From: Dipteris shenzhenensis
Taxonomy: Eukaryota
Length of the DNA: 64,000 nt
Assembly (NCBI GenBank): GCA_047967505.1
Contig: CM106538.1
Strand: one strand, 5' to 3'
Shown here: one piece after another, positions 3,300 through 64,000 of the stretch
How the letters are laid out: every line of letters begins with the position of its first letter
Numbering within the stretch: the stretch's first letter is position 1
Made by a program: the position numbers and the translations under genes
The notes under the pieces: generated by a model
The model's database searches: none
Seen by the model: only the letters and a program-made list of their open reading frames with translations
What the model was told of the DNA's origin: nothing

Positions 3300-3329
3300 T
3301 GGCAGCGTTGATTGACCACTAAATTTAGG

Positions 3330-17406: not shown

Positions 17407-20070
17407 TGTTGGGATATCTCAAGGTGTATGCCTCAGGCACACCTTGGTTTCTATGTGTGAGTGCTAGAGGCACAGTTAGGTGCCCACAAGCACAGTTAGG
17501 TGGTGGAAGAGCCACATAGGATGATTGAGAGAATCTAGGAGCAGATTGAGGAGATGATTGTGGAGCTCTGAAGTCATCAGTGATGTCAGTGAGCATGTAT
17601 GAGGTGCCTACTTAAGGACCTCACTCTTCTTCATTCTACAAGCAAGTAATGCAAGTATTCTGAGTTTGTGTCCACTCTTTCCTTTCCTTTCAGTTTACCA
17701 ACATGGTATCAGAGCCCTTTGATCCCCCTTGAGCCCATTTCTGCCACATCATCTTCTTCTTCTTCATCTTCTTCTCCATTTTCCTCTTTCTTCCCAAAAT
17801 CTTTGAGAGCTTGGTTCTCCACCTACAAACGACCATTGCCCAAACCCTCTAAGCTAGAAACTCCTCTAGTATGGGCAAACTTCCACCTGCAAGCAATTGA
17901 AGAAAAAACGTCTGTGGTGGCTGCCATTCCCCAAAAAGCGCATTTTTTTACCATTTCTTCTATTGCTCAATACTCCCTACTTGCTCCGCCATTGCCTGAG
18001 CCCTCTTAGGAGTAGATGGGTGACCTCAAGACAAAGATTTTGAGCCATTTTTCAGCTCATTTGGTTTAGTAACGAGGGAGAAATCGTCAAAACTCAGGTT
18101 CAGCCTGTAGCAACTCCCCCGGCCAAAAGTGCGCACCATTTCGTCCAACCTCTGTGTTGGACCCTCTCTGGTATATGAGCTTTCTTTTGCTTTAGAAAGC
18201 CCTCTTTTCCTTGCTTTGAAGAGTGAGCTACAAGCCCTCCAAGTTCAGCCTTTTAGTTTTGACAGTTTTGGACAAGTTTTTGAAGATGATGCTACATAAA
18301 ATGCTACTCTAGCATTTCTGGTTTTTTGAAACTTTCAATAACTTCAGTACAAGTGTGGCTTCAGTTTTGTTTTGAATTGCTAGACCTGGTTTTGATTGGA
18401 AAGTATTCATTTTAGCCACTTCTATGAAGCATGTAAGAAGAAGCATCATTGATTGAATATTGGTCACTAGTCTTTGCTACATCAAGTGCTCATATTTTGG
18501 AAGTCTTTCAATTATTTTTTGCCTTGTAAGAGAGATAGACACTGCCCAATATCTGGGTTAGACCCTCTCATGGCTACCCTATTGAATCTAGAAAAGTTCA
18601 ATGGAAAGGGCTTCCACACATGGCAGATGAAGGTGAAATTTGCATTGATGAGGGAGAACTTATGGGGACTTGTCAAACCGACTCCTACCGCTTCTTCTAC
18701 GGCCTCCAATGCTGGAGAATCCTCCACTCCGACACGACCGGCAAGGGATCCAGCTAGAGAAGAAAAAGCATATGGTATCATTGCTCTTGCTTTAGGAGAT
18801 GATTATATTCACCATATCTCTGACTTGGAGTCTCCTTCAGAAGCTTGGCAGAAGCTTGACATGATTTTTGGTGCTAGCTCTCACATCTCTAAACTATCAC
18901 TTAAAATCTCTTTCTTTGAATTGAAGATGGCTAGTGGTACTACTTTAGCAGCTCATGTCAACTATATGCGGAGTCTTATGACTCAATTAGCTTCTATCAA
19001 CTCTCCTATTACTCCAGATGATGCTATGGCAGTGTTACTTAAGAGTATGCCTGAAGACTATGATCACATAGTTACCACTTTGAAAAATCTTCCTAACCCT
19101 AATCTTGAAGGTATTATCTCTGCTCTCCAAGAAGAAGAAAGGCATATGGAGCTCAGGAAAGGCAATGACACTGTTTATGCTGTAAAAGTCCAGAAGGGCA
19201 AGTATACCCCTTGCAATCACTGTGGAAAGACAAATCACCTTTCAAAGGACTGCTTCAAAATTAATCCATGCAAGCACTGTGGCAAGAACAACCATAATGA
19301 GAAGTTTTGCAGAGCCAAAGCAAAGACAGAAAATGCAAATCTACTTTCAGTTGATGAGCCTCCACAAGATGAGGCATCCTTTGAAGATTATGCATTTTAA
19401 AACATCTCTATGTATGCTCCAAATCTCTCTTTTTATGTCAAGGTACTCAGCCTGGATAGTCCTCCAAAATGAATGAAATAAACTATTGTGTTTTGTGTGT
19501 TTTGTAAACACCTCTGGTCACCTTATGATGTAGGCCATGTGTATGTTTTGCTCCATGGTACCTTCTGCAGACATTGTGTGCATGTACATGCAGGGGAGAT
19601 AACCATTGGAAGGTCTTTTTGTATCCCTTTTGTTTACCTTACACCCATGGGAACCCTTGCTAGCATGAGAACCTAGCCATAGATTTATCCTTGACCACCA
19701 TGAGATGGCATGAGAAACTATGAGACTAGATGTATCCTTGACATAGCCTGAGGCATTCCCTTGAGGGGGGGTTTGTTGGGATATCTCAAGGTGTATGCCT
19801 CAGGCACACCTGGGTTTCTATGTGTGAGTGCTAAAGGCACAATTAGGTGCCCACAAGCACAGTTAGGTGGTGGAAGAGCCACATAGGATGATTGAGAGAA
19901 TCTAGGAGTAGATTGAGGAGATGATTGTGGAGCTCTGAAGTCATCAGTGATGTCAGTGAGCATGTATGAGGTGCCTACTTAAGGACCTCACTCTTCTTCA
20001 TTCTACAAGCAAGTAATGCAAGTATTCTGAGTTTGTGTCCACTCTTTCCTTTCCTTTCAGTTTACCAACA
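17407..20070 (+). mobile_element. Intact Gag-only non-autonomous LTR retrotransposon (TR-GAG type), 2664 bp
   Basis: 297-bp LTRs 17407-17703 and 19774-20070 with ~4 mismatches by eye; TSD ATTCC at 17402-17406 and 20071-20075; PBS TGGTATCAGAGC at 17704; PPT GAGGGGGGG at 19763-19771; no pol. Confidence 0.95.
18570..19400 (+). CDS. Copia-type Gag, 276 aa, two CCHC knuckles
   Basis: MATLLNLEKFNGKGFHTWQMKVK..LW; LLKSMPEDYD; CNHCGKTNHLSKDC and CKHCGKNNHNEKFC; ends FEDYAF*. Confidence 0.9.
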   Translation: MATLLNLEKFNGKGFHTWQMKVKFALMRENLWGLVKPTPTASSTASNAGESSTPTRPARDPAREEKAYGIIALALGDDYIHHISDLESPSEAWQKLDMIFGASSHISKLSLKISFFELKMASGTTLAAHVNYMRSLMTQLASINSPITPDDAMAVLLKSMPEDYDHIVTTLKNLPNPNLEGIISALQEEERHMELRKGNDTVYAVKVQKGKYTPCNHCGKTNHLSKDCFKINPCKHCGKNNHNEKFCRAKAKTENANLLSVDEPPQDEASFEDYAF

Positions 20071-21291
20071 ATTCCTTGACCAAGCTTTGGTGAGCTTTGG
20101 ATTAAGGCTCCTGTTAGGAAATCGTGGCTTGTCTTGGATGTCACCGACCTTGAAGAATCGCGCTGTTTCACTTAAGTTTTTGAATCGAATTCCTGGTTTC
20201 TATTTGTCCTCAAAAAACCTTCTAGAAACATGTGTGATCATGAGCTCAGCCGGAGGATTGTCATAGCATTAGCTTTGTGGCTTGCTTGAAGCTTTGGAGC
20301 TACAGGTCTCCAAGATGGCAGAACATCGGCTGTTTGTGATGCCCGTCTCTCCTCTCGGAATAGGAGGAGACTAGATCTCTATCTCACAAGGGATCTCTGT
20401 GAAGAACTTCACAATTTCTTGTCTCAATGGAAACACCTCTCTCTCATGGACGGAATGGATGGAATGAACAAATGGAAAAGAGCCAACATTGGTATCAGAG
20501 GCAATGTAGAGAAGATGGAAAGCAAATCCAAACATGAGGTGAAGCTAATTGATTACAATAGCACCAACTTTCCTATTTGGCAGCTCACGCTTTGTTTGTA
20601 TCATGGAGAAGGCTTTTGGTCGATTGTCTTAGATGTTGAGAAGAAACCAACAGGGAGAAAGGCTCATGACTCTCCTAAATTAGTAGAGAGATTGGAGGAA
20701 AGGAATGACAAGGCTCTTGGAATTCTGGGGTGAGCACTTGGTGGGAGGTATAGCCATCATCTCAACTTCTCCAAGATGGCATGCGAGAACTAGACTGTAG
20801 TGGAGACCTTGTTTAGTAGGCCGAGGCTCCAAAATTCAAAGGTATTACTCAATCATCAATTCTTTTGTTTGAATATTACAGAGGATCAAACACTTGGAGA
20901 GCATCTAAATCAGATGCACTCAATCCTTTGACAACCATTGATCTCGGTGTATGTATGGAAGACGATGATTCTAAAGTTGTACTTATTTCTAGCCTTACAC
21001 CATCATATGATGATCTTGTTAAGATCCTAAGAGTTAAAAATGATGCAAGTCTCTTATAAATGATTTCCATGCTACTAGAAGAGAGGCACAAGGTACTGAC
21101 GGGTAAAAGTGTGGATATTGTTGGAAGCTTGGACACAGAAAATAAACCTGTTTCAAAATGCGGGATGATATCACTCAGAAGAACAAAGAAAAAGGTAAAG
21201 AAAGTGTGCATGCAATAGAGGATTTTGCGAGACTCTATGTTGCAAGTGCAAGCGATGAAGATGAATGGGCATTCTAAACTCGGTGTTCATG

Positions 21292-24200
21292 TGTTGACTC
21301 TGTGCCAACATGAACTTATGAAGAAAGAGAAGGTGTTACAACTTTGTGATACAACTTTGTGTTACAACTTTCTGTTACAACTTCTAGACACAACCTTGTG
21401 TTACGACTTTGTGTTACAACTTCTACATGAAGAGAGAGAATGTGTTACGACTTTGTGACACAACTTTGTGTTACAGCTTTGTGTAACAACTTTGTGTTAC
21501 AACTTTGTGTTACAACTTCTACATGTAGAGAGAGAATGTGTTACAACTTTGTGTTACAACTTTGTGATACAACTTTGTGTTACAACTTTGTGATACGACT
21601 TTGTGTTATATGCAGAGAGAGAAGCTCTCCAACTTGTATAAATACCCCATAATGGAATGAAGCCCACACTCTTTGGGGCATTGTGTTGAGTCTACTTTGG
21701 TATTCTAAGCATTTGTCTCAAGTGTCCATGCTTCCTTGCACTGCACGTCCAAAAGCATGTCCTAACCTTACAACTCCTCCTTCCCTCTCCTCCAACCTTG
21801 CAACTCATCCTCTCCCTCTCCTCCTCCCTCCTCCTCCTCCCTCCTCCTCCTCCTCCTCCTCCCTCCTCCTCCTCCTCCTCTCCTCCTCCTCCCTCCTCCT
21901 CCTTCCTCCTCTCTCTTCTTTCCCCCATGCTCTTACACCTTTTTCCTCTCCCACTCCTATGCTTTCCTAAACCCTTTGTTCCTCAACCCTTAAACTCCAT
22001 GATCTACGAGGGAGACGAGTTCTCCACCATGTACTCTACTCTGAACCTTGGATCCTCCTTCTAACCTTGGACTCCTTCTAAACCTTGGAACCTCCTTCTA
22101 AACCCTGGAACTCTTTCTGAACCCTGGAACCTCCTTCTAAACCTTAAACTCCTCCTAAACCCTACAACCCCCAATGAAGGCGAAATAAAGATGATTTACG
22201 TTCCTTTTACACATGCATGCACTTTGTTTTCTTACCACACTTAAGCCTACGTCTCTCACCGAAACACGACTCGAGGTCCTAAGCTACACATCTACTACAA
22301 CCGACAATCCCAATATATCTGTAGGTGACAAAAATCCTCGGAACCTTGCAAACATAGAATACCCAGCTCTTCCTACGAAAGTAATAGGAAAGAGCCAACA
22401 TTTGTGGTAAGCAAACAAAGTGCATGCATGTGTAAAAGGAACATAAATCATCTTTGTTGAAGTAACGAAGGCTTTCGCCTTCATTGGGGGTTATAGGGTT
22501 TAGGAGGAGTTTAAGGTTTAGAAGGAGGTTCCAGGGTTCAGAAAGAGTTCTAGGGTTTAGAAGGAGGTTCCAAGGTTTAGAAGGAGTCTAGGGTTGTTGA
22601 CTTTGTGCCAACATGAACTTATGAAGAAAGAGAAGGTGTTACAACTTTGTGACACAACTTTGTGTTACAACTTCTAGACACAACTTTGTGTTACGACTTT
22701 GTGTTACAACTTCTACATGAAGAGAGAGAATGTGTTACGACTTTGTGACACAACTTTGTATCACTCCTATGCTTTCCTAAACCCTTTGTCCCTCAACCCT
22801 TAAACTCCATGATCTACGAGGGAGACGAGTTCTCCACCATGTACTCTACTCTGAACCTTGGATCCTCCTTCTAACCCTGGACTCCTTCTAAAACTTGGAA
22901 CCTCCTTCTAAACCCTGGAACTCTTTCTGAACCCTAGAACCTCCTTCTAAACCTTAAACTCCTCCTAAACCCTACAACCCCCAATGAAGGCGAAAGCCTT
23001 CATTACTTCAACAAAAATGATTTATCTTCCTTTTACACATGCATGCACTTTGTTTGCTTACCACACTTAAGCCTACGTCTCTCACCGGAACACGACTCGA
23101 GGTCCTAAGCTACACATATACTACAACCGACAATCCCAATATATCTGTAGGTGACAAAATTCCTCGGAACCCTGCAAACATAGAATACCCAGCTCTTCCT
23201 ACGAAAGTAGTAGGAAAGAGCCAACATTTGTGGTAAGTAAACAAAGTGCATGCATGTGTAAAAGGAACGTAAATCATCTTTGTTGAAGTCATGAAGGCTT
23301 TCGCCTTCATTGGGGGTTGTAGGGTTTAGGAGGAGTTTAAGGTTTAGAAGGAGGTTCCAGGTTTCAGAAAGAGTTCTAGGGTTTAGAAGGAGGTTCCAAG
23401 GTTTAGAAGGAATTGTTGACTCTGTGCCAACATGAACTTATGAAGAAAGAGAAGGTGTTACAACTTTGTGATACAACTTTGTGTTACAACTTTGTGTTAC
23501 AACTTTGTGTTACGAGTTCTAGACACAACTTTGTGTTACGACTTTGTGTAACAACTTTGTGTTACAACTTCTACATGAAGAGAGAGAATGTGTTACGACT
23601 TTGTGACACAACTTTGTGTTACAACTTTGTGTAACAACTTTGTGTTACAACTTTGTGTTACAACTTCTACATGTAGAGAGAGAATGTGTTACAACTTTGT
23701 GCTATAACTTTGTGATACAACTTTGTGTTACAACTTTGTGATACGACTTTGTGTTACATGCAGAGAGGGAAGCTCTCCAACTTGTATAAATACCCCATAA
23801 TGGAATGAAGCCCACACTCTTTGGGGCATTGTGTTGAGTCTACTTTGGTATTCCAAGCATTTGTCTCAAGTATCCATGCTTCCTTACACTGCACGTCCAA
23901 AAGCATGTCCTAACCTTACAACTCCTCCTTCCCTCTCCTCCAACCTTGCAACCCATCCTCTCCCTCTCCTCCTCCCTCCTCCTCCTCCCTCCTCCTCCTC
24001 CTCCTCCCTCCTCCTCCTCCTCCTCTCTCCTCCTCCTTCCTCCTCTCTCTTCTTTCCCCCATGCTCTTACACCTTCTTCCTCTCCCACTCCTATGCTTTC
24101 CTAAACCCTTTGTTCTGCAACCCTTAAACTCCATGATCTACGAGGGAGACGAGTTCTCCATTATGTACTCTACTCTGAACGTTGGATCCTCCTTCTAACC

Positions 24201-27200
24201 CTGGACTCCTTCTAAACCTTGGAACCTCCTTCTAAACCTTGGAACTCTTTCTGAACCCTGGAACCTCCTTCTAAACCTTAAACTCCTCCTAAACCCTACA
24301 ACCCCCAATGAAGGCGAAAGCCTTCATTACTTCAATAAAGATGATTTACGTTCCTTTTACACATGCATGCACTTTGTTTGCTTACCACACTTAAGCCTAC
24401 GTCTCTCACTGGAACACAACTCGAGGTCCTAAGCTACACATCTACCACAACCGACAATCCCAATATATCTGTAGGTGACAAAAATCCTCGGAACCCTGCA
24501 AACATAGAATACCCAGCTCTTCCTACGAAAGTAATAGGAAAGAGCCAACATTTGTGGTAAGCAAACAAAGTGCATGCATGTTTAAAAGGAACATAAATCA
24601 TCTTTGGTTAAGTAACGAAGGCTTTCGCCTTCATTGAGGGTTGTAGGGTTTAGGAGGAGTTTAAGGTTTAGAAGGAGGTTCCAGGAATCAGAAAGAGTTC
24701 CAGGGTTTAGAAGGAGGTTCCAAGGTTTAGAAGGAGTCTAGGGTTGTTGACTCTGTGCCAACATGAACTTATGAAGAAAGAGAAGGTGTTACAACTTTGT
24801 GATACAACTTTGTGTTACAACTTTGTGTTACAACTTCTAGACACAACTTTGTGTTACGACTTTGTGTAACAACTTTGTGTTATAACTTCTACATGAAGAG
24901 AGAGAATGTGTTACGACTTTGTGACACAACTTTGTATCACTCCTATGCTTTCCTAAACCCTTTGTTCCTCAACCCTTAAACTCCATGATCTACGAGGGAG
25001 GCGAGTTCTCCACCATGTACTCTACTCTGAACCTTGGATCCTCCTTCTAACCCTGGACTCCTTCTAAACCTTGGAACCTCCTTCTAAACCTTGGAACTCT
25101 TTCTGAACCCTAGAACCTCCTTCTAAACCTTAAACTCCTCCTAAACCCTACAACCCCCAATGAAGGCGAAAGCCTTCATTACTTCAACAAAGATGATTTA
25201 CGTTCCTTTTACACATGCATGCACTTTGTTTGCTTACCACACTTAAGCCTACGTCTCTCACTGGAACACGACTCAAGGTCCTAAGCTACACATATACTAC
25301 AACCGACAATCCCAATATATCTGTAGGTGACAAAAATCCTCGGAACCCTGCAAACATAGAATACCCAGCTCTTCCTACGAAAGTAGTAGGAAAGAGCCAA
25401 CATTTGTGGTAAGCAAACAAAGTGCATGCATGTGTAAAAGGAACGTAAATCATCTTTGTTCAAGTAATGAAGGTTTCGCCTTCATTGGGGGTTGTAGGGT
25501 TTAGGAGGAGTTTAAGGTTTAGAAGGAGGTTCCAGGGTTCAGAAAGAGTTCCAGGGTTTAGAAGGAGGTTCCAAGGTTTAGAAGAAGTTGTTGACTCTGT
25601 GCCAACATGAACTTATGAAGAAAGAGAAGGTGTTACAACTTTGTGATACAACTTTGTGTTACAACTTCTAGACACAACTTTGTGTTACGACTTTGTGTAA
25701 CAACTTTGTGTTACAACTTCTACATGAAGAGAGAGAATGTGTTACGACTTTGTTACACAACTTTGTGTAGCAACTTTGTGTTACAACTTTGTGTTACAAC
25801 TTCTACATGTAGAGAGAGAATGTGTTACAACTTTGTGCTATAACTTTGTGCTACAACTTTGTGATACAACTTTGTGTTACAACTTTGTGATACGACTTTG
25901 TGTTACATGCAGAGAGAGAAGCTCTCCAACTTGTATAAATACCCCATAATGGAATGAAGCCCACACTCTTTGGGGCATTGTGTTGAGTCTACTTTGGTAT
26001 TCCAAGCATTTGTCTCAAGTGTCCATGCTTCCTTGCACTGCACGTCCAAAAGCATGTCCTAACCTTACAACTCCTCCTTCCCTCTCCTCCAACCTTGCAA
26101 CCCATCCTCTCCCTCTCCTCCTCCCTCCTCCTCCTCCCTCCTCCTCCTCCTCCTCTCTCCTCCTCCTCCCTCCTCCTCCTTCCTCCTCTCTCTTCTTTCC
26201 CCCATGCTCTTACACCTTCTTCCTCTCCCACTCCTATGCTTTCCTAAACCCTTTGTTCCTCAACCCTTAAACTCCATGATCTACGAGGGAGATGAGTTCT
26301 CCACCATGTACTCTACTCTGAACCTTGGATCCTCCTTCTAACCTTGGACTCCTTCTAAACCTTGAAACCTCCTTCTAAACCCTGGAACTCTTTCTGAACC
26401 CTGGAACCTCCTTCTAAAACTTAAACTCCTCCTAAACCCTACAACCCCCAATGAAGGCGAAAGCCTTCATTACTTTAACAAAGATGATTTACGTTCCTTT
26501 TACACATGCATGCACTTCGTTTGCTTACCACACTTAAGCCTACGTCTCTCACCGGAACACGACTCGAGGTCCTAAGCTACACATATACTACAACCGACAA
26601 TCCCAATATATCTGTAGGTGATAAAAATCCTCGGAACCCTGCAAACATAGAATACCCAGCTCTTCCTACGAAAGCAGTAGGAAAGAGCCAACATTTGTGG
26701 TAAGCAAACAAAGTGCATGCATGTGTAAAAGGAAAGTAATTCATCTTTGTTGAAATAATGAAGGCTTTCGCCTTCATTGGGGGTTGTAGGGTTTAGGAGG
26801 AGTTTAAGGTTTAGAAGGAGGTTCTAGGGTTCAAAAAGAGTTCCAGGGTTTAGAAGGAGATTCCAAGGATTAGAAGGAGTCCAGGGTTGTTGACTCTGTG
26901 CCAACATGAACTTATAAAGAAAGGGAAGGTGTTACAACTTTGTGATACAACTTTGTGTTACAACTTCTAGACACAACTTTGTGTTACGACTTTGTGTAAC
27001 AACTTTGTGTTACAACTTCTACATGAAGAGAGAGAATGTGTTACGACTTTGTGACACAACTTTGTGTTACAACTTTGTGTTACAACTTTGTGTAACAACT
27101 TTGTGTTGCAACTTTGTGTTACAACTTCTACATGTAGAGAGAGAATGTGTTACAACTTTGTGATACAACTTTGTGTTACAACTTTGTGATACGACTTTGT

Positions 27201-27329
27201 GTTACATGCAGAGAGAGAAGCTCTCCAACTTGTATAAATACCCCATAATGGAATGAAGCCCACACTCTTTGGGGCATTGTGTTGAGTCTACTTTGGTATT
27301 CCAAGCATTTGTCTCAAGTGTCCATGCTT
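21292..27329 (+). repeat. Composite tandem array: six LTR-like blocks separated by five ~190-bp inverted-repeat modules; contains 13-bp TGTTACAACTTTG subrepeats, (CCT)n tracts and ~21-bp CTCCTTCTAAACCYTGGAAC subrepeats
   Basis: Blocks start TGTTGACT(C/T)TGTGCCAACA at 21292, 22595, 23414, 24745, 25589 and 26888. IR arm pairs are 22063-22239/22403-22595, 22873-23065/23229-23411, 24197-24389/24553-24745, 25049-25241/25405-25586 and 26340-26532/26696-26888, each around a ~163-bp spacer. Confidence 0.92.
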
Positions 27330-29180: not shown

Positions 29181-29643
29181 CCAGTTCCCATACATCAATT
29201 ACAAGCCGAGGAAGTAGACTCACTATTTGAGTATGAAGCAGAGTACCCAGTGTACTATGTAGAAGGTGCAGAGGGTCTCATACCAGTTTATGCAAATCAA
29301 GTACAACCCAACACATATCGAGCACCAATCAAGTGTTACAGTGATCGTAGAGTGCCCTCATCGTGGTAGCCCCGCTACTTTCCAACACTCTGCAGAGATT
29401 GTGGCATAGGACATGCCTGTATGGATTGTCCCATGAAAAATAAGGTCCTAGAATAAACAGAGGTTAAGCCTGACATCCCCATCGGCATCATTGGGGTGGA
29501 CCATCAAAGTCTAGGTCCGGCAATTCTAAGGTCACAACCTATCAATGTAATTACACGCCAACAGAAAGAGATCACGAAGGACCCTATCATTCCAATCCAA
29601 CTAAAGTGACTTCTGAAAAAGAAAGCACAAGTGCCTCCACCTC

Positions 29644-51559: not shown

Positions 51560-54018
51560 TTAGTTTAGGCTTGTCTAGTTTAAGGCAGCTCAATGTAAAT
51601 AGATGGTTTAAAGTAGTTGCCCCTTAACCCTTTACTTGTTTCAATTTGGTACAAGAGAGAACTCACTTGAATTGTTGAAAATGGGTTGGTCACGTCCCCA
51701 TCTATAAGCTGCCATATGAGGAGAGCATTTTGTTGGGCGGGGGGGGTTGAACCAAAGTGTGATGTGGCTGCCACAGCATACAAACAACAAAACATGGAAG
51801 CATGGGCCTGCCACATGGGCAGCACATGGGCTGCCATGTGGACAACACAAAGGGGACGTGCCTGACTGTGATGACGTGGACCTGCACAAGACGGATGATG
51901 TCAGCAATAGTACAAAAAAGGGAAGGTACCTGACTGTGATGACGTGTCTGGCAATGGTTGGCAGGAGCAAATCTGTACAGGGATCACAGGTAGGAGACGC
52001 TGCGATGATGTGATGCTGACATCAGCATCAGTACGGAGCTGTTTGGAGGACATCTAGGGCCTGCCAATGGCCACAGAAGAGGCGGATTGCAGGCGGAATA
52101 CAAAGGCTGAAGAGGCGACTGCTTTGGGCAGGTTTGGGCCTGGAAAAGGACAAACACAGGTCGGTTTTAGGGCAGGACTGCCTGGGCCAGTGGCAGCCTG
52201 CCACGTGGCCAGGCAAGGCCTACAAGCCCTCAGTTGATGTGCCCTTATGAGTCAGTTGTTATAGACTGGGTGGGTCGGCTGATACAGGGCTGCGAGTTGG
52301 CCATTTTAGGGGGCTACCTGAAACCGGCCTCTAATCACTCAGAGGGCAGTGGAACTAAACCTTTAATCACTTCAGCACTTATTTACAGCTCACAAAGCAT
52401 TTATCACAACCATTAACCATTGCATGATCACCATTTGGCATTTACCCATTTGTTCACAAACAAAATTACTGAAAAAGGGATGTGAAAAAGGGATGGAGGC
52501 TAGAATGCCCCTGCTCAACTGACATAGACAAGTGCACCTGATTGGCCCCAAACACTGTGGCGCCCCTTTCAGTATTTCTTTATATTTCACAGTGAAATGA
52601 TTACAAGTTGCATCTGGGAGACCTTCCCTGTAACTGAGCACGCAGCCCCAATTCACTAAGCCTTCGCAAGGCTTTCAAGCATAGAACACCATCACATAAG
52701 TACACTTAACCCATAGGCTCAACCCAAAGGCATTCTCTTTTCTGAGTGCAATTCCATTGGCTGTCCAGATGCAATCACACTGCACCCCAGCTGCACTCTC
52801 TTTGAGTGGTTTCTAGATGGCATTCACAAAGCTTTTTAAAGCTCCAAAATAAAATCAGCAAAGTACCCAACCAAAGACAAAGAATGACTCATGTAGCACT
52901 GCCTGGGCACCTGTGAGCCAAGAAAGAGGCGGCACACGAGGCCAACCAATAGCTTATGGCAAAAAGAAATTGCAGTAGCAAAATCACAACTCACCAAGCC
53001 CTGAAAACTCGAACCAAGTCCCCTCAATCGCCAAGAGGACATAGTAGCCAATGCCCAATTGCATTCTCAGCCAAAGAGGAGTGCAAAGGCATGAAGAAAG
53101 AGCATTTACAAGAGCCGACCAGCAAGAATTCCACTAAAAAATGCGAAAAGAAGCACTTCTGTCACGAAGAAGTGGGAGTTCTTGGGCTCAAAAGAAGCGT
53201 GCTTCAGAGAGGAATGCATTGAGAAGGTTTTGGAGAAGTTTCATCGCCGGAAAGTCCTGCAAAACTGAGAAAAACCAGTCAACCAGCGCTTGGGACCACT
53301 CGAAATTCAACAGAAAGCTGTAGCTTTGCAAGAGGAGAGGCCCAGGAGGCGGTAGAAGCAAAAAGATCCAGAAAAAGCCACTTTTGCAAATTCGACCAGC
53401 AAAAGAAGTGCTCAGCTCTGCCCGTTCTACCAAACGCACGGAGGGAAAAGCATATCACTACGAAGGGGAGGCAGAGGGGAAGCCATCGGGCCAAACGGAA
53501 GTCGAGGAATCCAAACGGGTAAGGAGTTATGAAGAAAAACGGAATTTAGTTGAAGGAGGCTGAAAAACCAGTCCAAAATCTCAACAAAGGGAGAAGACGA
53601 GAGAGAAAACCACACATGTGAAGTTTAGAAGGCCCAGGAAGGTCCAAGAATGGCAAAGGAGCATGTAGAAGGCACTAGAGCCACCTGGAACTCTAGGGGG
53701 GCCACTGAAGGTACATGGCCCTCTAGGGAGCCCATTAAAAATGCCACATCATCATTTTCCAGCAACCACTCTTTTAATTCCTTGGAATGCCTTTGGGCCT
53801 AGGGATTAATTACGCTTATGTGCTAGGCACCATGCCGCGTTTAATTACACATTATTAAGCCCACGCTTGGACTTTTAAAACCAAAGTTGTCACGGTCTTG
53901 TAGTACATTAAAGTACTTAGAATTTCACGCCCCCGTGACATACCCCTCTCTTGAAATAGCAAACCACAGTTTGCTGCCCCAAAACACCGGAGCGAGCATG
54001 AAATATAGCATAAAAGAG

Positions 54019-57000
54019 TGTTAGAAAATACCCAACAGAGGGTACACGTAGCGGAAGACTTATAGTAATGCCCAGGAGCTCACACAGTGTGCGGTGTGGG
54101 TGTGGAATCACAAACTTCTTTACTTATGTGCATTCAATAGGTGTGCAGACTCATCAATAGACATTGAACCAAACTAGATAGAGAAACCACCAAATAATAT
54201 ATTTCCGTCCACAACTATGGACACAATACAAGAGTGACAGATCCAGAGTCCCACCAATGGTGTGGTCCTCTGATCTTACCACAAAGTCCTTCTCCTATCT
54301 GCTGGCTATCTCTAGACTAGAGTCCGCGTGCTCCACCTCGAGCGTGAGTAGACTTTCCGTCTAAAATGATCCTCTCCACCTTGCTGTCTGGGAACCAGCC
54401 TAGGTGGGCAGCTTCCTGGCTAACTCTGCAGCCCTGCTAGCACCTCTCTATCCTCCTGCTGTAGGTCCAGAGGGTGGCTACCTGCTGCTCCTTTCTGCTC
54501 TGGATCTGCTGCTGCAAGTGATGCTGAAATGAGGCTAAATGGCCTCTTTATATAGGCCCCAAGGCCTGCACCAAAAAACCAACCAGTCTGCTTGAAAAAA
54601 CCGACTCAGTCTGTACAAAAAACCGACCAGACTGCTTGGAAAAAACCGCCCTTAAAGGGCTCACAAGTCAGGCCTTTTATGGCCCAAACTTCCAGGGCTT
54701 TTGGCCCTCCATTCAAGGCAAATATGCAGCCTATAAAAGGGCTGCCACCTGCCCACTGACAGTCACATTCCTTGCTGCAGATCTGAGCCTGCACTCCCTG
54801 CCATGTCTGCGCCTCTGCAAACAGTGCGCCTCCATGTCCTAGATCCTTCGCAATCTGTCCCAGACTGTCTTGCTTCTGCTCCGGGCTTGTTCCAGCTCTA
54901 AGGCTCCTGCCTGAGCTCCGTATGCCAGCCGTACAGCAGGCATCTGTATTCTGCCATCCTTCCGTACTTTCCTGGCCCTTAACAGTTCTAGATGTGCTGC
55001 CCTCATGCCAGCCATGATGCTGTCTATGTGGCAGCCCCTTTCTCTCTTTTCCTGTTGGGTACTGCCCTAGGTCTCCCTCCCCCATGCTCTCCTCATATGG
55101 GGGCTTACAGATGGGGAGGTGACTTTTCCAACACCCCAACTAGCCGACACATCCCAGCCCAATGCCAACACGTCGATGAAGATGCTCCAGTAACTCCCTG
55201 GTCGTAGTCCTCTGGAACCTTTCGGTGTCAAAATCTTTTCCTGGCTTTTCATCCAGTGGCTCCTGGTCCACCAGGTCCGGTTCCGCTTCCGCACACCATC
55301 CTGGTACACAGGTCCATCTCTGGTAGCACCTCCTGGTACCACCTCCTTCAGTCGCATTCCCGCCTCTGAACTTGAGCAACCCAGCCGTCACGATCTTCCA
55401 GTCGTCCCCCTCATAATGAGTGAACAACCTGGAGTCTTCCAGGTACCATGCTCTGAGGGTCTGTTTCAACCCGTCCTTCCTTTGGCAAGGTCTGTAACCA
55501 ATGAATATTTCCAGATAACCTGGACCATGAACTCTCGCTGAGTTCTCAAGCAGGTACTCTTTAGGCTTCAGTACTCTTTGTCCACCACCTTCTAGCAATC
55601 TGCGTCCGAGATTTGAAGAAGCACCAATACTTCCCCTTCTGCCTTCGAAGAAGGCCAATTCCTTCCAATCTCTTATAACCTGAGACAAATGAAGAGCAGA
55701 ATCTCCCCACAGCATGCTATAAAGGCTCAAATGCAGAATATCAAATACATACCAGACTGTTGTACTGCCTGAATGTTCGCTCTGAAAGCAAACCCTGTAC
55801 CTCAATGAGGCACCCGCCAAGATCCTGTGTAATCCTGTTCTGTCCCCTTCTGAAGTCCAGCATCCATCTGACCATGAGACCCCAGGGCTTTCCATGGAAT
55901 CCACCCTCGTGTCAGTGTCAACAGCTACACACCTGGAAGGTACCAAGCGCTCCATACTGTCCTTCACCTTCACAAAGGCATCGGACTCCTCGTCGACCCA
56001 CATCTCTATGTCAGACATCCTTACTGTGATTTCAGGATCAACATACTTGACCTCGGTAACACTCGGTGATGTCACCAGGAACAATTCTTCGATTACCACA
56101 TTAGCTTTGGCCTTTCCCTCTGAATCTGGGTCAGACTCCTGTTTGTTTTTCAGATCCGCCTTTTTCTTTCTGCAGTCTTTTGCAAAATGTCTGGGCGTAT
56201 CACAATAGAAACACTTCTTCTTGTGCTTCCTCTTCGAAGTCCCCTCGTCGTCAGAGTCATCTTTATTGGACTTGCCACCGTTAGGCTTGCCCTTTCCTTT
56301 ACCAGCGGAATCCTTCACCAGCATCGCCTTTTCGTTTTTGTCCTCGTTGTAGAGCTTCTCCTGAGCTTCCTCCTGTAGCAGTAATGGACACAACTCCTCA
56401 AATGTCAGAGGTTTGGTCCGCTGTCCTGCTGTCACAGCCGTAACAAAGCTCTTGAAACTCCGAGGCAATCTCCTCAGTACCATCAAGGCCAGATGGCATG
56501 AGTCTTTCTTCTGACCAATCGCTGCTAACTGATCCCGCACCACCTTGACCTTTGTCAAATGGCTATGTACCGTATCGCCTTCTTCCATATCAAGATTGTA
56601 GAGTTGATGCTGAAGAAGCACGATCCGGGAGGTATTATCTGTCTTGTACAGATCCTTTAGGGTGGCCCACGCCTCTACTGAGGTCTTGGCCAGCTGGATA
56701 TGCGGAAGAACAGAGTCCGCCGTAGTCCCTATGATTATTGCCAGGGCATGGGCATCTCTTTCTTCCCAAGCTTCAAGCTCCTCTCTGTCTACTGCCATGA
56801 GTACCTTCCCTTTATTGTCCACCATGTCTGCCGGCTTCGACTCCTCTCCTGTGGTCAGCTTCCACAACTTCCGAGCCACTAAATGACTCCGGATCTTCAC
56901 TTTCCAGATCGGGTAATTAGTCCCGTCCAGGTTCCCAGACTCTCCAAAGTTAGGAATAGTGAAAGAGAGAAAACTGGAGGAGGAGGAAGGGATAGCAGGG

Positions 57001-58360
57001 GCTGAAGAGGTTGTCGACATCTCTGCTGTATATACCACACAGCAAAGTCAACCAAACTCAAATGCAGTAAACCAGAACTCTGAACGCACATGACTGAACC
57101 TGAGTCACCCTCCTTCTCGCAAGGGCACAATCCTCCAGTCGTGGAAGTCGATTCCCTAGAGCTTCTGAATCAGGGTCGTCCTTCAGCAAGGTCCCTGCCT
57201 TCAGGCTCCCACACCTGTGAGCCTCCTACTTGGGCTCTGATACCATGTTAGAAAATACCCAACAGAGGGTACACGTAGCGGAAGACTTATAGTAATGCCC
57301 AGGAGCTCACACAGTGTGCGGTGTGGGTGTGGAATCACAAACTTCTTTACTTATGTGCATTCAATAGGTGTGCAGACTCATCAATAGACAATGAACCAAA
57401 CTAGATAGAGAAACCACCAAATAATATATTTCCGTCCACAACTATGGACACAATACAAGAGTGACAGATCCAGAGTCCCACCAATGGTGTGGTCCTCTGA
57501 TCTTACCACAAAGTCCTCCTCCTATCTGCTGGCTATCTCTAGACTAGAGTCCGCGTGCTCCACCTCGAGCGTGAGTAGACTTTCCGTCTAAAATGATCCT
57601 CTCCACCTTGCTGTCTGGGAACCAGCCTAGGTGGGCAGCTTCCTGGCTAAGTCTGCAGCCCTGCTAGCACCTCTCTATCCTCCTACTGTAGGTCCAGAGG
57701 GTGGCTACCTGCTGCTCCTTTCTGCTCTGGATCTGCTGCTGCAAGTGATGCTGAAATGAGGCTAAATGGCCTCTTTATATAGGCCCCAAGGCCTGCACCA
57801 AAAAACCAACCAGTCTGCTTGAAAAAACCGACTCAGTCTGTACAAAAAACCGACCAGACTGCTTGGAAAAAACCGCCCTTAAAGGGCTCACAAGTCAGGC
57901 CTTTTATGGCCCAAACTTCCAGGGCTTTTGGCCCTCCATTCAAGGCAAATATGCAGCCTATAAAAGGGCTGCCACCTGCCCACTGACAGTCACATTCCTT
58001 GCTGCAGATCTGAGCCTGCACTCCCTGCCATGTCTGCGCCTCTGCAAACAGTGCGCCTCCATGTCCTAGATCCTTCGCAATCTGTCCCAGACTGTCTTGC
58101 TTCTGCTCCGGGCTTGTTCCAGCTTTAAGGCTCCTGCCTGAGCTCCGTATGCCAGCCGTACAGCAGGCATCTGTATTCTGCCATCCTTCCGTACTTTCCT
58201 GGCCCTTAACAGTTCTAGATGTGCTGCCCTCATGCCAGCCATGATGCTGTCTATGTGGCAGCCCCTTTCTCTCTTTTCCTGTTGGGTACTGCCCTAGGTC
58301 TCCCTCCCCCATGCTCTCCTCATATGGGGGCTTACAGATGGGGAGGTGACTTTTCCAACA
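54019..58360 (-). mobile_element. Young pol-less copia-derived LTR element (TR-GAG-like), 4342 bp
   Basis: 1115-bp LTRs 54019-55133 and 57246-58360 with ~5 mismatches by eye; TSD AAGAG at 54014-54018 and 58361-58365; tRNA-iMet PBS 57231-57245; a single internal ORF. Confidence 0.95.
55140..57020 (-). CDS. Copia Gag with a ~300-aa C-terminal extension of unknown function (~626 aa from ATG 57020)
   Basis: NLDGTNYPIWKVKI..LW, VLRRLPRSF and knuckle CFYCDTPRHFAKDC, then an uninterrupted frame with no DSG, DDE or YVDD motifs. Confidence 0.8.
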   Translation of the reverse strand: MSTTSSAPAIPSSSSSFLSFTIPNFGESGNLDGTNYPIWKVKIRSHLVARKLWKLTTGEESKPADMVDNKGKVLMAVDREELEAWEERDAHALAIIIGTTADSVLPHIQLAKTSVEAWATLKDLYKTDNTSRIVLLQHQLYNLDMEEGDTVHSHLTKVKVVRDQLAAIGQKKDSCHLALMVLRRLPRSFKSFVTAVTAGQRTKPLTFEELCPLLLQEEAQEKLYNEDKNEKAMLVKDSAGKGKGKPNGGKSNKDDSDDEGTSKRKHKKKCFYCDTPRHFAKDCRKKKADLKNKQESDPDSEGKAKANVVIEELFLVTSPSVTEVKYVDPEITVRMSDIEMWVDEESDAFVKVKDSMERLVPSRCVAVDTDTRVDSMESPGVSWSDGCWTSEGDRTGLHRILAGASLRYRVCFQSEHSGSTTVWYVFDILHLSLYSMLWGDSALHLSQVIRDWKELAFFEGRRGSIGASSNLGRRLLEGGGQRVLKPKEYLLENSARVHGPGYLEIFIGYRPCQRKDGLKQTLRAWYLEDSRLFTHYEGDDWKIVTAGLLKFRGGNATEGGGTRRCYQRWTCVPGWCAEAEPDLVDQEPLDEKPGKDFDTERFQRTTTRELLEHLHRRVGIGLGCVG

Positions 58361-61300
58361 AAGAGTATACAAGAAAGCCGCAGCTATAGTATACAGAGAC
58401 AGTGAAAATATGGCTAGGAGAGGCATGCATCCATGCATATATACTGCTTAAAATCTATGTGATCCTCGGCGATCAATAGTCAAGATGCATCAATATCATG
58501 AAGTCTCACAGCAGAAATACTGTCAGCTCAGTATCTCGGATGAAACATACAGTGTCATCAAGTGACCTCATGAAATCACAGTGAGCCCGTTTGTACTGAG
58601 GGAGTGGAGGTGCTACCCCCCTCTCGAACACTAGGTAATGCTCCAGACGCTCACTCTGCTGAACTACCTGTAGGAGCCTGGACCGCAGTCGGCTCTAATT
58701 GGAAAGCATCAAGCTAAAGCTGCAATATCCCAGGTGAATCTGCCAGTTCACCTTCCTCCATCCATTTCGCATCAAGTGATGGGTAATTTTGAAATTTTAC
58801 CAAGTAGCGACGGATAACTTTACCCTTGAGCTTTCTATCCCTGTGTAAAAGGTGCTTTACCTGTGGATGTAAGCATATTCCAGCAAAGGCAAATAATGCT
58901 CCCATTCGCTTTTGTGGTTTGAGACATAGCATTTAAACATATCCAAGATGGTAGAGTTTTCGTGCTCCGATTGTCCATCAGAATGAGGGTGAAAAGATGA
59001 CGAAAAATTCTGCGTAGTGCCCATATTATCAAACAGTCCTCTCCAAATGAGGCTGGTCATCCTCGGATCTCTATCACTGATTATGGATTCAGGCATCCCA
59101 TGATACTTGAAGACATGTTGCAAAAACAATTTGGCCATTTGATCTGCTGTAATTTTCTTTCTTACTAGCACAAAGTGGGCTTGTTTGCTAAACCTGCAAA
59201 TTATTGTCCACAATCCATCATGTCCAGTAGGTACGTGGAAGATCAAACATAAAATCCATAGCTATGCTTTGCCATGGTCTATCCGGAATTGGCAAAGGGT
59301 ATAACAACCCAGGTGCCTTCTGCCTGTCAAACTTTACTTTCTGACAAACCATGCATGTTCTCACATATTCTTCCACATCTTTCCTCAAAGATGGCCAATA
59401 AAAGTATTGCTCCACTGCTGTAATTGTTGCTGTAATTCCCCTATGTCTTGCATATGGAGGAGCATGACTTTCCATTATGACTTTCTGTCGCATCTGATCA
59501 GTGACACAGAGTTGTCCATGCATCAAAATGAAGCCCTCTTTCAACATATAGTGATCATGCCTTTGACCATCAGAAAGCTGATCATAAATAGTTGAAAAAT
59601 CAGCATCATTAACATATTGATCTTTCATCACATCTAACACATTGTTGTAAGCAATGCTCACTGCTGAAACACTGGGTTTCTTGGAGACTGCTTCAGGCTG
59701 TGGTTTCCTGGAAAGTGCATCAGCCATGACATTTTTGTTACCCGGCTCATGTACAATTTGAAAATGAAAGATTGAGAGGAAGTTAGCCCATCTCATGTGC
59801 TTTTCAGATAATTTTCTCTGCGTGAGAAAATATCTAAGTGACTGATGATCTGTCTGCACATAAAAGTCAGCTCCAAGAAAGGTAATGTTTCCATGTGGTC
59901 AAAGCATGTATCACTGCTAACATTTCCTTCTCGTATGTCTACAAGTACAATTTAGCATCTTTGAGAACTCTACTCTCATATGCAACCACTCTGCCATCCT
60001 GCATCAAAGTGCCTCCTATGCTGTTTCCACATGCATCACAAGTTACAGCAAAGGGTTTTGCAAGATCTGGCAAGATAATAACGGGTTCAGAACACAACTT
60101 TTGCTTCAGCTCTTCAAAAGCTGCATTTTCCTTTGGTCCCCACTGAAACGCTACAGCTTTCTTTTGTAAAGCATGCAAGGGAGAAGCAATTTCTGCAAAG
60201 TACTTTATAAACCTCCGATAGTATGAACACAACCCAAGAAAGCTTCTGACTTCATGTAGATTTTTCAAAATTGGCCAACTCCTTATGGCCTCAACTTTTG
60301 CAGGGTCCATCTTGACTCCATCCTTTGACACTATATGACCGAGAAAATGAATCTCATGCATAAAGAACTCACTTTTCTTGGTGTTTATTAATAGCTTGTG
60401 TCTTTTCAACTCTTGAAACACAATAGTGAGGTGTTTCCTGTGCTCCTGCTCATTTTTAGAGAACACAATGATGTCATCGAAGAAAGTGCCCACAAACTTT
60501 CTGTGTGCTCTAAAAATTCTGGCCATCATTCTATTGAAAGTGGCAGGTGCATTAGTCAAACCAAAAGGCATCACAAGGAACTCATATAAGGCAAATGAAG
60601 TGCGGAAGGCAGTCTTGTAGACATCTTCAGGCCGTATCCTTATCTGATGGTATCCACTTTTAAGGTCAATATGACTGAACATTGAGGAACCTTCCAACCG
60701 ATCCAATATATCATCAATGCGTGGAATTGGAAAACGGTTCTTAATTGTGACTTTATTCAAAGCCCTATAATCAATACACATTCTCCAACTGCCATCCTTC
60801 TTTTGCACAAGCAACACAGGGGAATAGTAAGGAGAATTACTTGGCTGTATTAATTCCTTTTCCAAGAGTTCCTTCACTTGTGACATTATCTCTTCCTGTT
60901 GTGCCTTACTGACACGATAGGGAGGTATATTAGGTGGTGAGCTTCCTGGAATTATATCAATTTGATGATCCTCGAGCCTCTTGGGAGGTAATTCTTGAGG
61001 AAGTGCATCTGAGAAACAATCCTGAAAATCTGAAATAAAAGCAGCCCTTTCTCTATCTAAAGCAGAAAGAGTAGAGCCTTCCTGAACTGGTTGGCTGTCC
61101 TCTTTGACAAAATCGAGTACGCTGAAATATGACGCTTTATTACATTGGAAATACAAGAAGCTGAAACTACAAGGATGGACTCCCCTTTCAACTTTACATC
61201 AAGTACATGCTTTTTGCCTCTATGAGTTAAAGAAATCTTCTTGTTTCTCATCTGCACATCAGCCCCCACCCTGTACATCCAAGGCATCCCAAGCAAAGCA

Positions 61301-62911
61301 TTACACTCTGGCAAAGGCATAATGTAGAAGTCCTCTGCATCCTGATATCCCTGGATATGCATCCTCAAAAGAAGCGTGTTTCAGAGAGGAATGCATTGAG
61401 AAGGTTTTGGAGAAGTTTCATCACCGGAAAGTCCTCCAAAACTGAGAAAAACCAGTCAACCAGCGCGTGGGACCACTTGAAATTCAACAGAAAGCTGTAG
61501 CTTTGCAAGAGGAGAGGCCCAGGAGGCGGTAGAAGCAAAAAGGTCCAGAAAAAGCCACTTTTGCAAATTCGACCAGCAAAAGAAGTGCTCAGCTCTGCCT
61601 GTTCTACCAAACGCACGGAGGGAAAAGCATATCACTACGAAGGGGAGGCAGAGGGGAAGCCATCGGGCCAAACGGAAGTTGAGGAATCCAAACGGGTGAG
61701 GAGTTATGAAGAAAAACGGAATTCAGCTGAAGGAGGCTGAAAAACCAGTCCAAAATCTCAACAAAGGGAGAAGACGAGAGAGAAAACCACACATGTGAAG
61801 TTTAGAAGGCCCAGGAAGGTCCAAGAATGGCAAAGGAGCATGTAGAAGGCACTAGAGCCACCTGGAACTCTAGGGGGGCCACTGAAGGTACATGGCCCTC
61901 TAGGGGGCCCATTAAAAATGCCACATCATCATTTCCCAACAACCACTCTTTTAATTCCTTGGAATGCCTTTGGGCCTAGGGATTAATTACGCTTATGTGA
62001 TAGGCACCATGCCGCGTTTAATTACACATTATTGAGCCCACGCTTGGACTTTTAAAACCAAAGTTGTCACGGTCTTGTAGTACATTAAAGTACTTAGAAT
62101 TTAACGCCCCCGTGACACTACCAGCCCCTATAAGAGGGCCCCCTTGGGGCCTCATAAGTTATCACTTGAAGCAGCAGTTCAAGAGCAGACCAGAAGCTTG
62201 GCAAGGAGCAGATGGGCTTAGGGATCTAGAAGTGTTATGGAGGTAGTAGGACAACACCTTTTGGGGTAAGGACAAAGGACCACGATTTGGACTTCTTTTG
62301 TAATGTGTCCTATTGGACCGAAATATATTTTGGTTGGCTCTATATCTCTTGTGGAGCATTGTCTATTTATTGGCTTGCACATATACACATGTTTGTTGAC
62401 TACACACAAGTAAATAAGTTTTGGATTCCGTAGTTAAATACTTCCGTGTGCAATTCTTGGGTAGCTCTTTCAGTTTTCCGCTGTGGGATACCCTCTGTTT
62501 GGTTCATTTCTAACATGGTATCAAAGCCTTGATCAGAAGTTCATGGGAAGTGGAGCTTGAAGGCAAGGACCTTGCTGAAGGACGACCTTGATTCAAAGCT
62601 CAGGGGAATCTACTTTGACATTTGAAGGATTGTGCCCTTGCAAGAAAGAGTGTCACGGGGAGGTGAATTTTCTAGACCTGTGAATACCTTTGGCCTCTCA
62701 TTGATTAGAATTGTAAAAAGTGCTAATCGAGTGTATTAATTCCATGGGCCTGGGCAAGGAGCTGAAGGGCAAGAGAGGGGTAAAAATCCCATTGCTAAAA
62801 ACAGCTCCATGGGTCACATTTGGCAAGGTGGCTTGGAAGCGAGCAGAAAAGTTGAAATTTACTTTGAGGTAGTTCAGAGAGAGGGAAGTCGCAAGCTGGG
62901 AAAGTGCCCTA

Positions 62912-64000
62912 TGTTGGTATCAAAGTACGAGATTTTACTTAGAATGAAAAGCAATAGTTCACACGTGATATCAAAGTAGTAATACATTAAAAAGATGACA
63001 AAAACTCTGGGACAACAGAGTTACAAGCAAAGACCTAATGGCTCAGCCCGACCAAGCTTGTTGCAGTTTTACAAAGGATGCTATGATCTCAACACACAGT
63101 CGAGCTTGTGACTACAACAATGTCTGACACACAAACTGCTCGTAGAAGACCACACAGGCCGAGATGCACTGCTTTACTATAAGAGCACACAGCTCCAAAG
63201 AAAGGCGACACATGCCTTAGATCATCCATCATAGCGAGATGCTTGAAGAAGGCGCCATATATGAAGATCGGCTAACTACCAAGACAAGCTGGAGGCAAGA
63301 AGTCGTGCCGACAGTGATTCCAATGATCCATCACCAGCCATCATAGTTGCTCCAATCCCAAACTCTTGGAGTGACTCTCATCCTAAGCCAAAGGTTGAGT
63401 ATCCAGCTAGACAATCGGAGACGACAAGTGGCGCCTTCCAAAGCACCGCCTTGCTCTTGACACGTCCATGCATGCATGCAATAACGCCAAGTGGCTGATC
63501 ACTGCCACCTCAATCTACCCTACGAGGTTTACTAATGCTAACAAACGCAACAATCCCCCCATAAACCAAGGAGGGGAGAATCTAACTGGAAACACAACTG
63601 CAGACAAAAGCAACACACCACCAAAAATGTTGCTCACGCTAGAGCTTAAAAAGCATAATTATCATTGAGGTAGCTATCGTCTTCCAAATCGATTATAGGA
63701 ATGCCGTCTTCACGTACCAAGCCGGCTATCTCATTTGTATCACTATCTTCGAGTAGACAAGCCTTTGAACTGTTGCCATGCTTATCATCATACACTTTCT
63801 TGTAGCAATGCTTCTCCTTGTGTCCTTCTTTCCTACAGTATTTGCAAGTGACCATTGGATTTTTCCCATTGCTCTTTTCTCCTTGGCTGCAAAAAATTGC
63901 TCACCATTGCCAACTGTATGCATCTCTGCTCGTGTCTCTTCACTCAACATAATCGAAAGCACTTCTTGAAAGGTTAATGCATCTGAATTTAGACGAAGTA
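62912..64000 (-). mobile_element. 3' part of another Gag-only copia-type element: gag C-terminus (stop 63646), PPT, LTR 62912-63552
   Basis: CKYCRKEGHKEKHC knuckle; ends ..EDDSYLNDNYAF*. About 90 bp later the minus strand reads TGGGGGGAT-TGTTG. The LTR reads TGTTG..CAACA on +. Confidence 0.75.

Follow-up and report, generated by a model that had tools for sequence, protein, structure and literature searches.

A 64,000-nucleotide stretch of DNA from Dipteris shenzhenensis (GenBank assembly GCA_047967505.1, contig CM106538.1; hereafter the window) carries three open reading frames (ORFs) for Gag proteins of the copia type that all end with the residues [Y/W]-A-F followed by a TAA stop codon. 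Our analysis makes it probable that these ORFs have diverged from one another within a single old Ty1/copia lineage, which is non-autonomous, has kept only gag and ends this gene at the junction between Gag and the protease. The shared [Y/W]-A-F-TAA ending is non-random. A preliminary description of the window had reported the three frames, which are indeed present, and had taken the elements that carry them to be unrelated. That view is refuted by blastx matches among proteins with [YW]AF ends and by a tree in which Gag1 and Gag2, two of the three, fall into one well-supported clade. Its alternative suggestion of one old Gag-only lineage agrees with the same tree.

The only intact copy in the window, Gag1 (18570..19400, plus strand), encodes 276 amino acids with a capsid domain, two CCHC zinc knuckles and an acidic tail. 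The protein matches Pfam families PF14223 (Retrotran_gag_2, E = 5e-32) and zf-CCHC, and it ends with DEASFEDYAF. The terminal Y-A-F is encoded by tat gca ttt at 19389-19397 and is followed by TAA at 19398-19400 (both within 19389..19400, plus strand). An AlphaFold2 model is confident for the capsid helices; residues 256-276 have a predicted local distance difference test score (pLDDT) below 50, and this tail is predicted to be disordered.

Gag2 (20446..21277, plus strand) belongs to the same clade and has decayed. Its frame changes twice and is interrupted by an in-frame stop at 21057-21059, and its blastx alignments use three frames. The last of these frames (21146..21277, plus strand) ends with SDEDEWAF and a TAA at 21275-21277, so that the protein closes with D-E-D-E-W-A-F, and T-R-C-S follows in frame after the stop. 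Pfam recognizes a fragment of PF14223 (E = 0.0019). Gag3 (63646..64000, minus strand) is the C-terminal part of a gag that is cut by the window end. The fragment contains one frame change and is identified by a CCHC knuckle and blastx matches only. Its last frame (63646..63855, minus strand) ends with N-D-N-Y-A-F and a TAA at 63648-63646.

Gag1 is carried by element 1 (17407..20070, plus strand), a complete gag-only retrotransposon of the TR-GAG type that is 2,664 bp long. Its long terminal repeats (LTRs; 17407-17703 and 19774-20070) are 297 bp in length, have TG..CA ends and are 98.65% identical with four differing positions, which suggests that the insertion is recent. They are flanked by a perfect 5-bp target-site duplication, ATTCC, at 17402-17406 and 20071-20075. 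Directly 3' of the 5' LTR is a primer-binding site (PBS), TGGTATCAGAGC (17704..17715, plus strand), which we take to be the initiator-tRNA-Met site usual for copia elements. A polypurine tract (PPT), GAGGGGGGG (19763..19771, plus strand), lies two bases ahead of the 3' LTR, and Gag is the sole Pfam family matched by the element. Among the three copies, element 1 is the only one with a matched LTR pair in the window; Gag2 has no matching 5' LTR, and the 5' part of Gag3 lies beyond the window end, where its LTRs are out of view. A search for partner elements found no match to the leader or the post-stop stretch of element 1 elsewhere in the window, and no helper element was found within the window. 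Contigs about 98% identical are present in runs labelled as three organisms, and we take such multiple copies as a sign of mobility. In a raw RNA run, of which about 18% was read at a likeness of at least 85, no reads fell on 18119-19097, a result with no bearing on expression either way.

The structure of element 1 bears on the idea that the ORFs are host genes, that is, a domesticated Gag family rather than mobile elements. The ORF has remained intact in many database clusters with identities of 26-80%, changes within it are mostly synonymous, and a fern genome annotation carries relatives as hypothetical-protein gene models, as might be expected of host genes. However, Gag1 is enclosed by a nearly identical LTR pair in an element that also has a PBS, a PPT and a target-site duplication, Gag2 and Gag3 have both degenerated, and the protein cluster closest to Gag1 has 22 near-identical members on many contigs. 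Domestication therefore seems to us scarcely credible.

The surroundings of Gag2 include a tandem array at 21292-27329 that begins 15 bp after the Gag2 stop. Its units start at 21292, 22595, 23414, 24745, 25589 and 26888, alternate between about 1.3 kb and 0.82 kb in length and are 91-94% alike. Each of the long units contains runs of a 13-bp repeat (TTGTGTTACAACT-like), and the units open with TGTTGAC, which resembles an LTR end. The region may thus be an array of LTR-like units, as found in other non-autonomous elements.

A word-indexed search returned seven relatives of Gag1 that are nearly full length and 42-80% identical to it; six of these end in [YW]AF. A full HMMER scan with Gag1 retrieved 5,136 proteins at E <=0.001, and the best 150 of these plus eight other matches make up the comparison set of 158 proteins used below. 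Within this set, 13 proteins end in [YWF]AF and 12 more in [LM]F, and W-x-x-D-S/T-G is found further downstream in 55. The first long protein in the Gag1 ranking is a 2,080-aa polyprotein at rank 24, with 31% identity. A metagenome scan for DNA of relatives, made with an alignment of closely related sequences as query, matched 190 patterns, none of which was confirmed.

A maximum-likelihood tree was built from 104 Gag rows of at least 225 aa, the long ones all having a recognizable D-S/T-G. Short proteins entered the tree without their last three residues and long ones without the sequence from the W of W-x-x-D-S/T-G onwards; therefore, the ending trait was unable to shape the tree. One branch with a support of 99 in the Shimodaira-Hasegawa-like approximate likelihood ratio test (SH-aLRT) unites 28 rows, comprising all 14 with [YWF]AF ends (including Gag1 and Gag2), six of the eight with x-[LM]-F ends and eight other short proteins. 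None of the 56 protease-bearing rows falls inside this clade. Identities between its Gag proteins go down to about 26-30%, and the only named members among the relatives compared are hypothetical proteins of the fern Adiantum nelumboides. Many members have two CCHC knuckles; the mean is 1.6 in 13 measured [YWF]AF tails versus 1.06 in protease-bearing relatives.

Gag2 sits on a long branch, and its exact place in the tree is unsure. Its best blastx match is the comparison protein P0105 (E = 8e-19), which ends with DEEWAF. Gag3 is too short for the tree and is linked to the clade by its best blastx matches, P0019 (E = 2e-5) and P0122, which both end in WAF; for Gag2 and Gag3 alike, the blastx targets were the set collected with Gag1 as query. 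Because Gag1 and Gag2 belong to one clade and Gag3 is most similar to proteins with the same ending, the three window copies appear to share their end by descent.

Some points limit this reading. The exact [YWF]AF ending requires at least six changes on the tree within the clade, which counts against strong selection on A-F. The sample consists of the best 150 matches to Gag1, such that protease-bearing kin nearer to other clade members may be missed, and a few database protein ends may be contig ends. Alternatively, unrelated gag-only elements might each have been truncated at one and the same place because a C-terminal aromatic-Ala-Phe signal is under selection, perhaps for joining helper particles in co-assembly. 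Outside the clade, a comparable motif is where P0088 ends (ECAF) and just after which P0199 breaks (SDYAF, with integrase sequence following), and the x-L-F enders P0022 and P0043 fall just outside the clade. However, all [YWF]AF rows in the tree, including two of the three window copies, share a clade that has no protease-bearing member, Gag3 is closest to [YW]AF-enders, and the window holds a further element that retains gag, is from a different lineage and has no stop at the motif. We therefore judge such convergence to be very improbable, and common descent from one gag-only ancestor remains the explanation that we prefer.

Conservation of the end was measured in the 27 intact rows of the clade. 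The last residue is F in 19 of these, A is found at position -2 in 13, W or Y at -3 in 15 (W in 10), and an acidic residue at -5 in 18. Of 229 well-filled Gag columns, only 21% reach the conservation of this last residue, and the linker that precedes it is unalignable. One alignment of ender proteins shows an invariant F, but this is circular because its rows were chosen by their ends. Judged from its substitutions, the Gag ORF as a whole is under purifying selection; seven of the eight differences listed inside the Gag1 ORF are synonymous (the contigs compared derive from runs that bear the labels of three other organisms, and there are 212 further differences beyond those listed). The proposal of a selected C-terminal signal is thus upheld in part, in that a Phe end persists in 19 of 27 rows despite an unalignable linker. 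It is weakened by the family closest to Gag1, whose 10 full tails end in Y-V-A (seven), Y-V-S (one), Y-V-F (one) and Y-A-F (one), and this also counts against a strict need for A-F.

The position of this end relative to the protease was compared with autonomous relatives. In the 40 residues before the W of 56 protease-bearing rows, similar short sequences recur, such as DYLF:SV, EFLF:HV, EEVAF:VA, AYLF:MA and TFLF:VA (a colon follows the last motif residue here and below). Expectation-maximisation, run on the linkers of 51 autonomous rows to the exclusion of gag-only sequences, yielded the motif [ED]-[VYIF]-[AGL]-[FL]:[VTAS]-[AV], which ends at a median of 12 residues (interquartile range 10-14) before W. 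In general form, the motif is [DE]-Φ-[A/L/G]-[F/L] and stands about 14 residues upstream of W-x-x-DSG. In 25 of the 56 rows, the dipeptide [AL]F is found between 30 and 7 residues ahead of W; after shuffling, this holds for 7.9 rows on average and for 15 at most.

Two autonomous copia copies in the window provide reference junctions. In the first (14703..14768, plus strand), V-E-L-L:T-T is followed by 10 residues and then by W-I-L-D-S-S, the start of the protease barrel; in this copy the Pfam match to Pol_BBD starts at the W, and an AlphaFold2 model is ordered from the W-I-L-D strand on. In the second (7960..8110, minus strand), N-E-H-S-F:M-V is followed by 21 residues and W-Y-V-D-S-G-A-S. Two autonomous copies have a GTGAAG hexamer that resembles a 5' splice site, at 8085-8090 (minus strand) and at 29720-29725 (plus strand), at distances of 3 nt and 7 nt, respectively, from the preceding Phe codon of the motif; a third autonomous copy, that at 14703-14768, has no GTGAAG. 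There is a hint in these sequences that the upstream motif might be located at the donor from which copia elements splice a short Gag RNA (shGAG).

We lean towards identifying the shared Gag end with this upstream junction motif. The Tyr-type ends DYAF (Gag1), EYAF and QYAF score 8.5-10.8 bits on the motif and -5.5 to -6.7 bits on the W site, where the 99.9th percentile for random 4-mers on the motif is 8.0 bits. The x-L-F and x-M-F ends of the clade score 1.2 to 7.8 bits on the motif and -0.7 to -9.3 bits on the W site. In semi-global alignments of tails anchored at the last knuckle with 45 autonomous rows, Tyr-type tails land on the upstream motif in 52% of pairs and on the W site in 5%, and x-L-F tails do so in 28% and 5%, respectively. 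Shuffled tails reach the two sites in 8% and 2%.

Two proteins outside the clade are also informative. P0088 ends with EEDECAF, and one unforced high-scoring segment pair from a BLASTP search with the whole Gag aligns this end to SDEEEVAF:VA of P0063, which stands 12 residues before the W of that protein. In P0199, SDYAF:TS is followed by the C-terminal part of integrase, indicating an internal deletion right behind the motif.

The preliminary description had instead placed the stop at the catalytic Asp of the protease. In this case [W/Y]-A-F would be the W-Φ-Φ strand that opens the protease barrel, the stop codon would replace the Asp, and the lineage would have been truncated exactly there. 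MAFFT does place the [YW]AF tails on the W-x-x columns before DSG, and global hhalign places WAF on 'Wii'. Unmasked Trp-type tails reach the W site in 39% of semi-global pairs, versus 2% for shuffles, and the upstream motif in 20%. When the Trp is masked, however, these tails reach the W site in 3%, which is the shuffled level, and the upstream motif in 23%. Similarly, with Trp masked or with non-Trp tails only, global hhalign moves the terminal Phe to a different conserved Phe inside the protease. Since masking the Trp moves the end, the W-x-x placement depends on this one residue, and we rejected global hhalign as evidence for the Asp position.

Other observations also speak against the Asp position. 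At the W-x-x triplet of the 56 autonomous rows, A-F occurs in none and L-F in two. Both the Tyr-type and the x-L-F tails have negative scores on the W site (-0.7 to -9.3 bits). The Trp-type tails are poor matches even there, at 5.1-7.5 bits, because autonomous rows typically reach 14.0 bits at their own W sites. The measured x-L-F tails extend 16-47 residues (median 23) from the last zinc knuckle to their end, whereas at least 29 residues separate the knuckle from W in autonomous rows; overall, the knuckle-to-end spacing is compatible with both placements.

No relic of a protease was detected after any of the three stops in any frame. A protease profile made from 43 segments scored 0.0, -0.9 and -2.3 bits on the three post-stop stretches, and 72, 41 and 39 bits on two autonomous controls in the window. 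A tblastn search with 14 full polyproteins on the stretches around the Gag ORFs returned nothing below E = 0.04. In the frame after the Gag2 stop, T-R-C-S is near to the T-G-C-S of a protease, and had been proposed as a relic along with S-S-V-S-N in an offset frame after the Gag3 stop. Neither scores better than wrong-frame controls in the protease profile, and the proposed relics are thus not borne out.

Several findings nevertheless count against the upstream motif as the site of the shared end and would favor the Asp position. The motif outscores the W site in only 12 of the 27 rows. Trp is found at -3 in 10 of 27 clade tails, and W precedes the catalytic Asp by three residues in 54 of the 56 autonomous rows; at the corresponding position of the upstream motif, W is absent from every autonomous row. 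On that motif the Trp-type tails score only -1.6 to 2.4 bits, lower than on the W site. Moreover, three landmarks follow one another in the right order in the tails of P0184, P0105, P0122, P0019, P0022 (compared with P0153) and Gag2. The tail of P0184 has an internal upstream motif, ESAL:TV (10.8 bits), and a 12-residue spacer before its terminal WAF, and the tails of P0019, P0105 and P0122 have weaker internal motifs. Gag2 reads RLY:VA, eight residues and then WAF, and P0097, which is on a 1,480-nt contig, reads VAF:PA, 11 residues and W-I-Y before its end. The P0022 tail includes TTLF:AS, akin to TTFLF:VAS of the protease-bearing P0153, which belongs to the same polytomy as the clade. As a limit on both placements, hhalign in local mode (-loc) stops at the zinc knuckle before reaching the tail, and BLASTP alignments of P0022, P0184 and P0097 with protease-bearing rows also end at the knuckle.

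One placement must hold for all tails, because SFDSWAF, SFDKQYAF and SFEDYAF are plainly the same site. The linker consists of similar modules, each an acidic run with two hydrophobic residues, which makes tail alignment inherently ambiguous, and no tail placement is statistically secure. A stop that replaces the catalytic Asp is possible and the less likely of the two placements, given its dependence on Trp, the lack of A-F at the triplet and the missing relic. An end that corresponds to neither the upstream motif nor the W-x-x strand seems improbable. On either placement, the ORF ends at the Gag-protease junction.

A model that accounts for these findings can be outlined. Each element encodes a complete capsid-nucleocapsid Gag and carries its own cis signals (LTRs, PBS and PPT). 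Protease, integrase and reverse transcriptase would be supplied by autonomous copia elements, a dependence on helpers that we infer because the elements are without pol. The lineage might have arisen when pol was lost by deletion, as in P0199, or by the copying of a spliced RNA. Its ORF ends within the stretch, predicted to be disordered, that links the zinc knuckle to the protease fold. The frame would since have been trimmed to the last residue that Gag needs, namely the one that closes the final conserved motif ahead of the protease, and the sequence past that residue would have been lost by deletion and trimmed by nonsense mutations.

Trimming to the last needed residue would produce a fixed end without a special mechanism. 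Also, it fits the upstream motif better than it fits three stray residues of a lost protease strand. The acidic-[W/Y]-[A/L]-F-stop would have been inherited from the common ancestor and maintained by purifying selection in most branches. In our favored reading, the stop would mark the natural boundary between Gag and protease, and its last residue could be the P1 residue of a processing site.

A more speculative proposal, which we consider rather unlikely, is that selection acts on the acidic-[W/Y]-A-F terminus as a short linear motif by which a parasitic Gag would copy the end of the processed or spliced Gag of a helper and dock on the helper Gag-Pol or protease. If so, the borrowed enzymes would be drawn into particles that package the RNA of the gag-only element itself, and the motif would decide which autonomous family a gag-only lineage exploits. 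This would also explain how the lineage survived until its Gag proteins had diverged to less than 30% identity.

Gag-only LTR elements are usually regarded as the outcome of sporadic deletions in autonomous elements. Here, a deep clade of such elements with a recognizable end points to a long-lived parasitic lineage rather than to repeated accidents. The conserved end might also serve as a natural marker for where functional copia Gag stops. To our knowledge, experiments have so far located this point only by way of spliced shGAG RNA, and only for a few elements of angiosperms. In plant copia elements, the motif [DE]-Φ-[A/L/G]-[F/L] is a candidate for the site of Gag/protease processing or for the region of the splice donor.

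Other elements and genes occupy much of the remaining window. The fourth gag-retaining non-autonomous element, which belongs to another lineage, is located at 54019..58360 on the minus strand and has 1,115-bp LTRs that are 99.55% identical. Its 626-aa ORF (55140..57020) reads through E-E-L-F-L-V-T without a stop, falls outside the clade in the tree and matches only Retrotran_gag_2 and DUF4219 in Pfam. Thus, the ORF comprises Gag and about 300 residues without a Pfam match, and it reaches the LTR edge. The element is nested in a gypsy-type element (53187-62122) whose 759-bp LTRs are 97.6% alike. A pair of 289-bp LTRs at 49484-51559, 97.2% identical and 1,787 bp apart, has no protein family match between its members and may represent an element similar to terminal-repeat retrotransposons in miniature (TRIM) or large retrotransposon derivatives (LARD).

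Among the autonomous-type copia elements, that at 13801-16205 (plus strand) has its gag ORF (13801-14709) and its pol ORF (from 14691) in different frames with a 19-nt overlap. Its protease motif is D-S-S instead of D-S-G, as is that of a copy at 29617-30210. At 28113-32873 (plus strand), the ORF ahead of a pol in copia order (protease barrel, integrase and RVT_2) matches PF03732 (Retrotrans_gag) and not PF14223. Host genes between the elements include an ORF with an AP2 domain (2721-3332, minus strand) and a gene of the Npa1/URB1 type for ribosome biogenesis (41571-49329, plus strand), which includes one uninterrupted frame of 1,255 aa. The latter is closest to a Ginkgo-style entry (52%), with angiosperms at 36-41%, in agreement with a non-angiosperm land plant as the source of the window.

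The kind of element described here is known. TR-GAG elements, as defined in the available parts of the report by Chaparro et al. 2015 (PMC4350172), are LTR elements of less than 4 kb with a PBS, a PPT and a single copia-type Gag ORF (PF14223 plus a zinc knuckle), and are without protease, integrase and reverse transcriptase. Element 1 shares all of these defining features: its LTRs are flanked by a target-site duplication, PBS and PPT are present, it is 2,664 bp long and encodes Gag only, and it has several copies. TR-GAG elements were described in angiosperms, whereas the named relatives found here are from a fern. The available text mentions only 'few similarities' of the TR-GAG C-terminal part to aspartic proteases. 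In that same portion of the article, the terms 'stop codon', 'C-terminal', 'splic' and 'deletion' do not appear, and neither a conserved ORF end nor a deep gag-only clade is described. The excerpt also refers to BARE-2 of barley, a non-autonomous copia element that needs an autonomous partner. This is the opposite case, with a defective gag and a pol that is kept.

The internally deleted copia protein P0199 resembles the window lineage in that gag is kept and the breakpoint is a few residues past S-D-Y-A-F. It differs in running in frame into the C-terminal part of integrase, whereas the window lineage stops and has no pol sequence. GAG/PROT-retaining families are mentioned in a 2026 survey of sugar beet (PMC13570524), with no conserved end in the parts of the survey accessible to us. 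In the literature searched, which did not cover supplements and was in part available as excerpts, no deep gag-only clade with a conserved ORF end and no mapped Gag/protease cleavage site of a plant copia element was described.

The closest functional parallel is provided by autonomous elements. Plant copia elements make most of their Gag from spliced RNA, as published for EVD of Arabidopsis and BARE1 of barley and summarized in the available portion of Oberlin et al. 2017 (PMC5580714). According to this portion, EVD splicing "removes the entire protease" with a stop just past the junction, and across the copia elements of Arabidopsis, donor sites for splicing show conservation around the protease. 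The normal working form of Gag thus stops at this junction. The window elements encode the same kind of Gag, which ends at the front edge of the protease. They differ in that the stop is written in the window DNA, with no intron and no pol. What is new is the age and depth of the gag-only clade, its occurrence outside angiosperms, its conserved junction end and the upstream motif in autonomous relatives.

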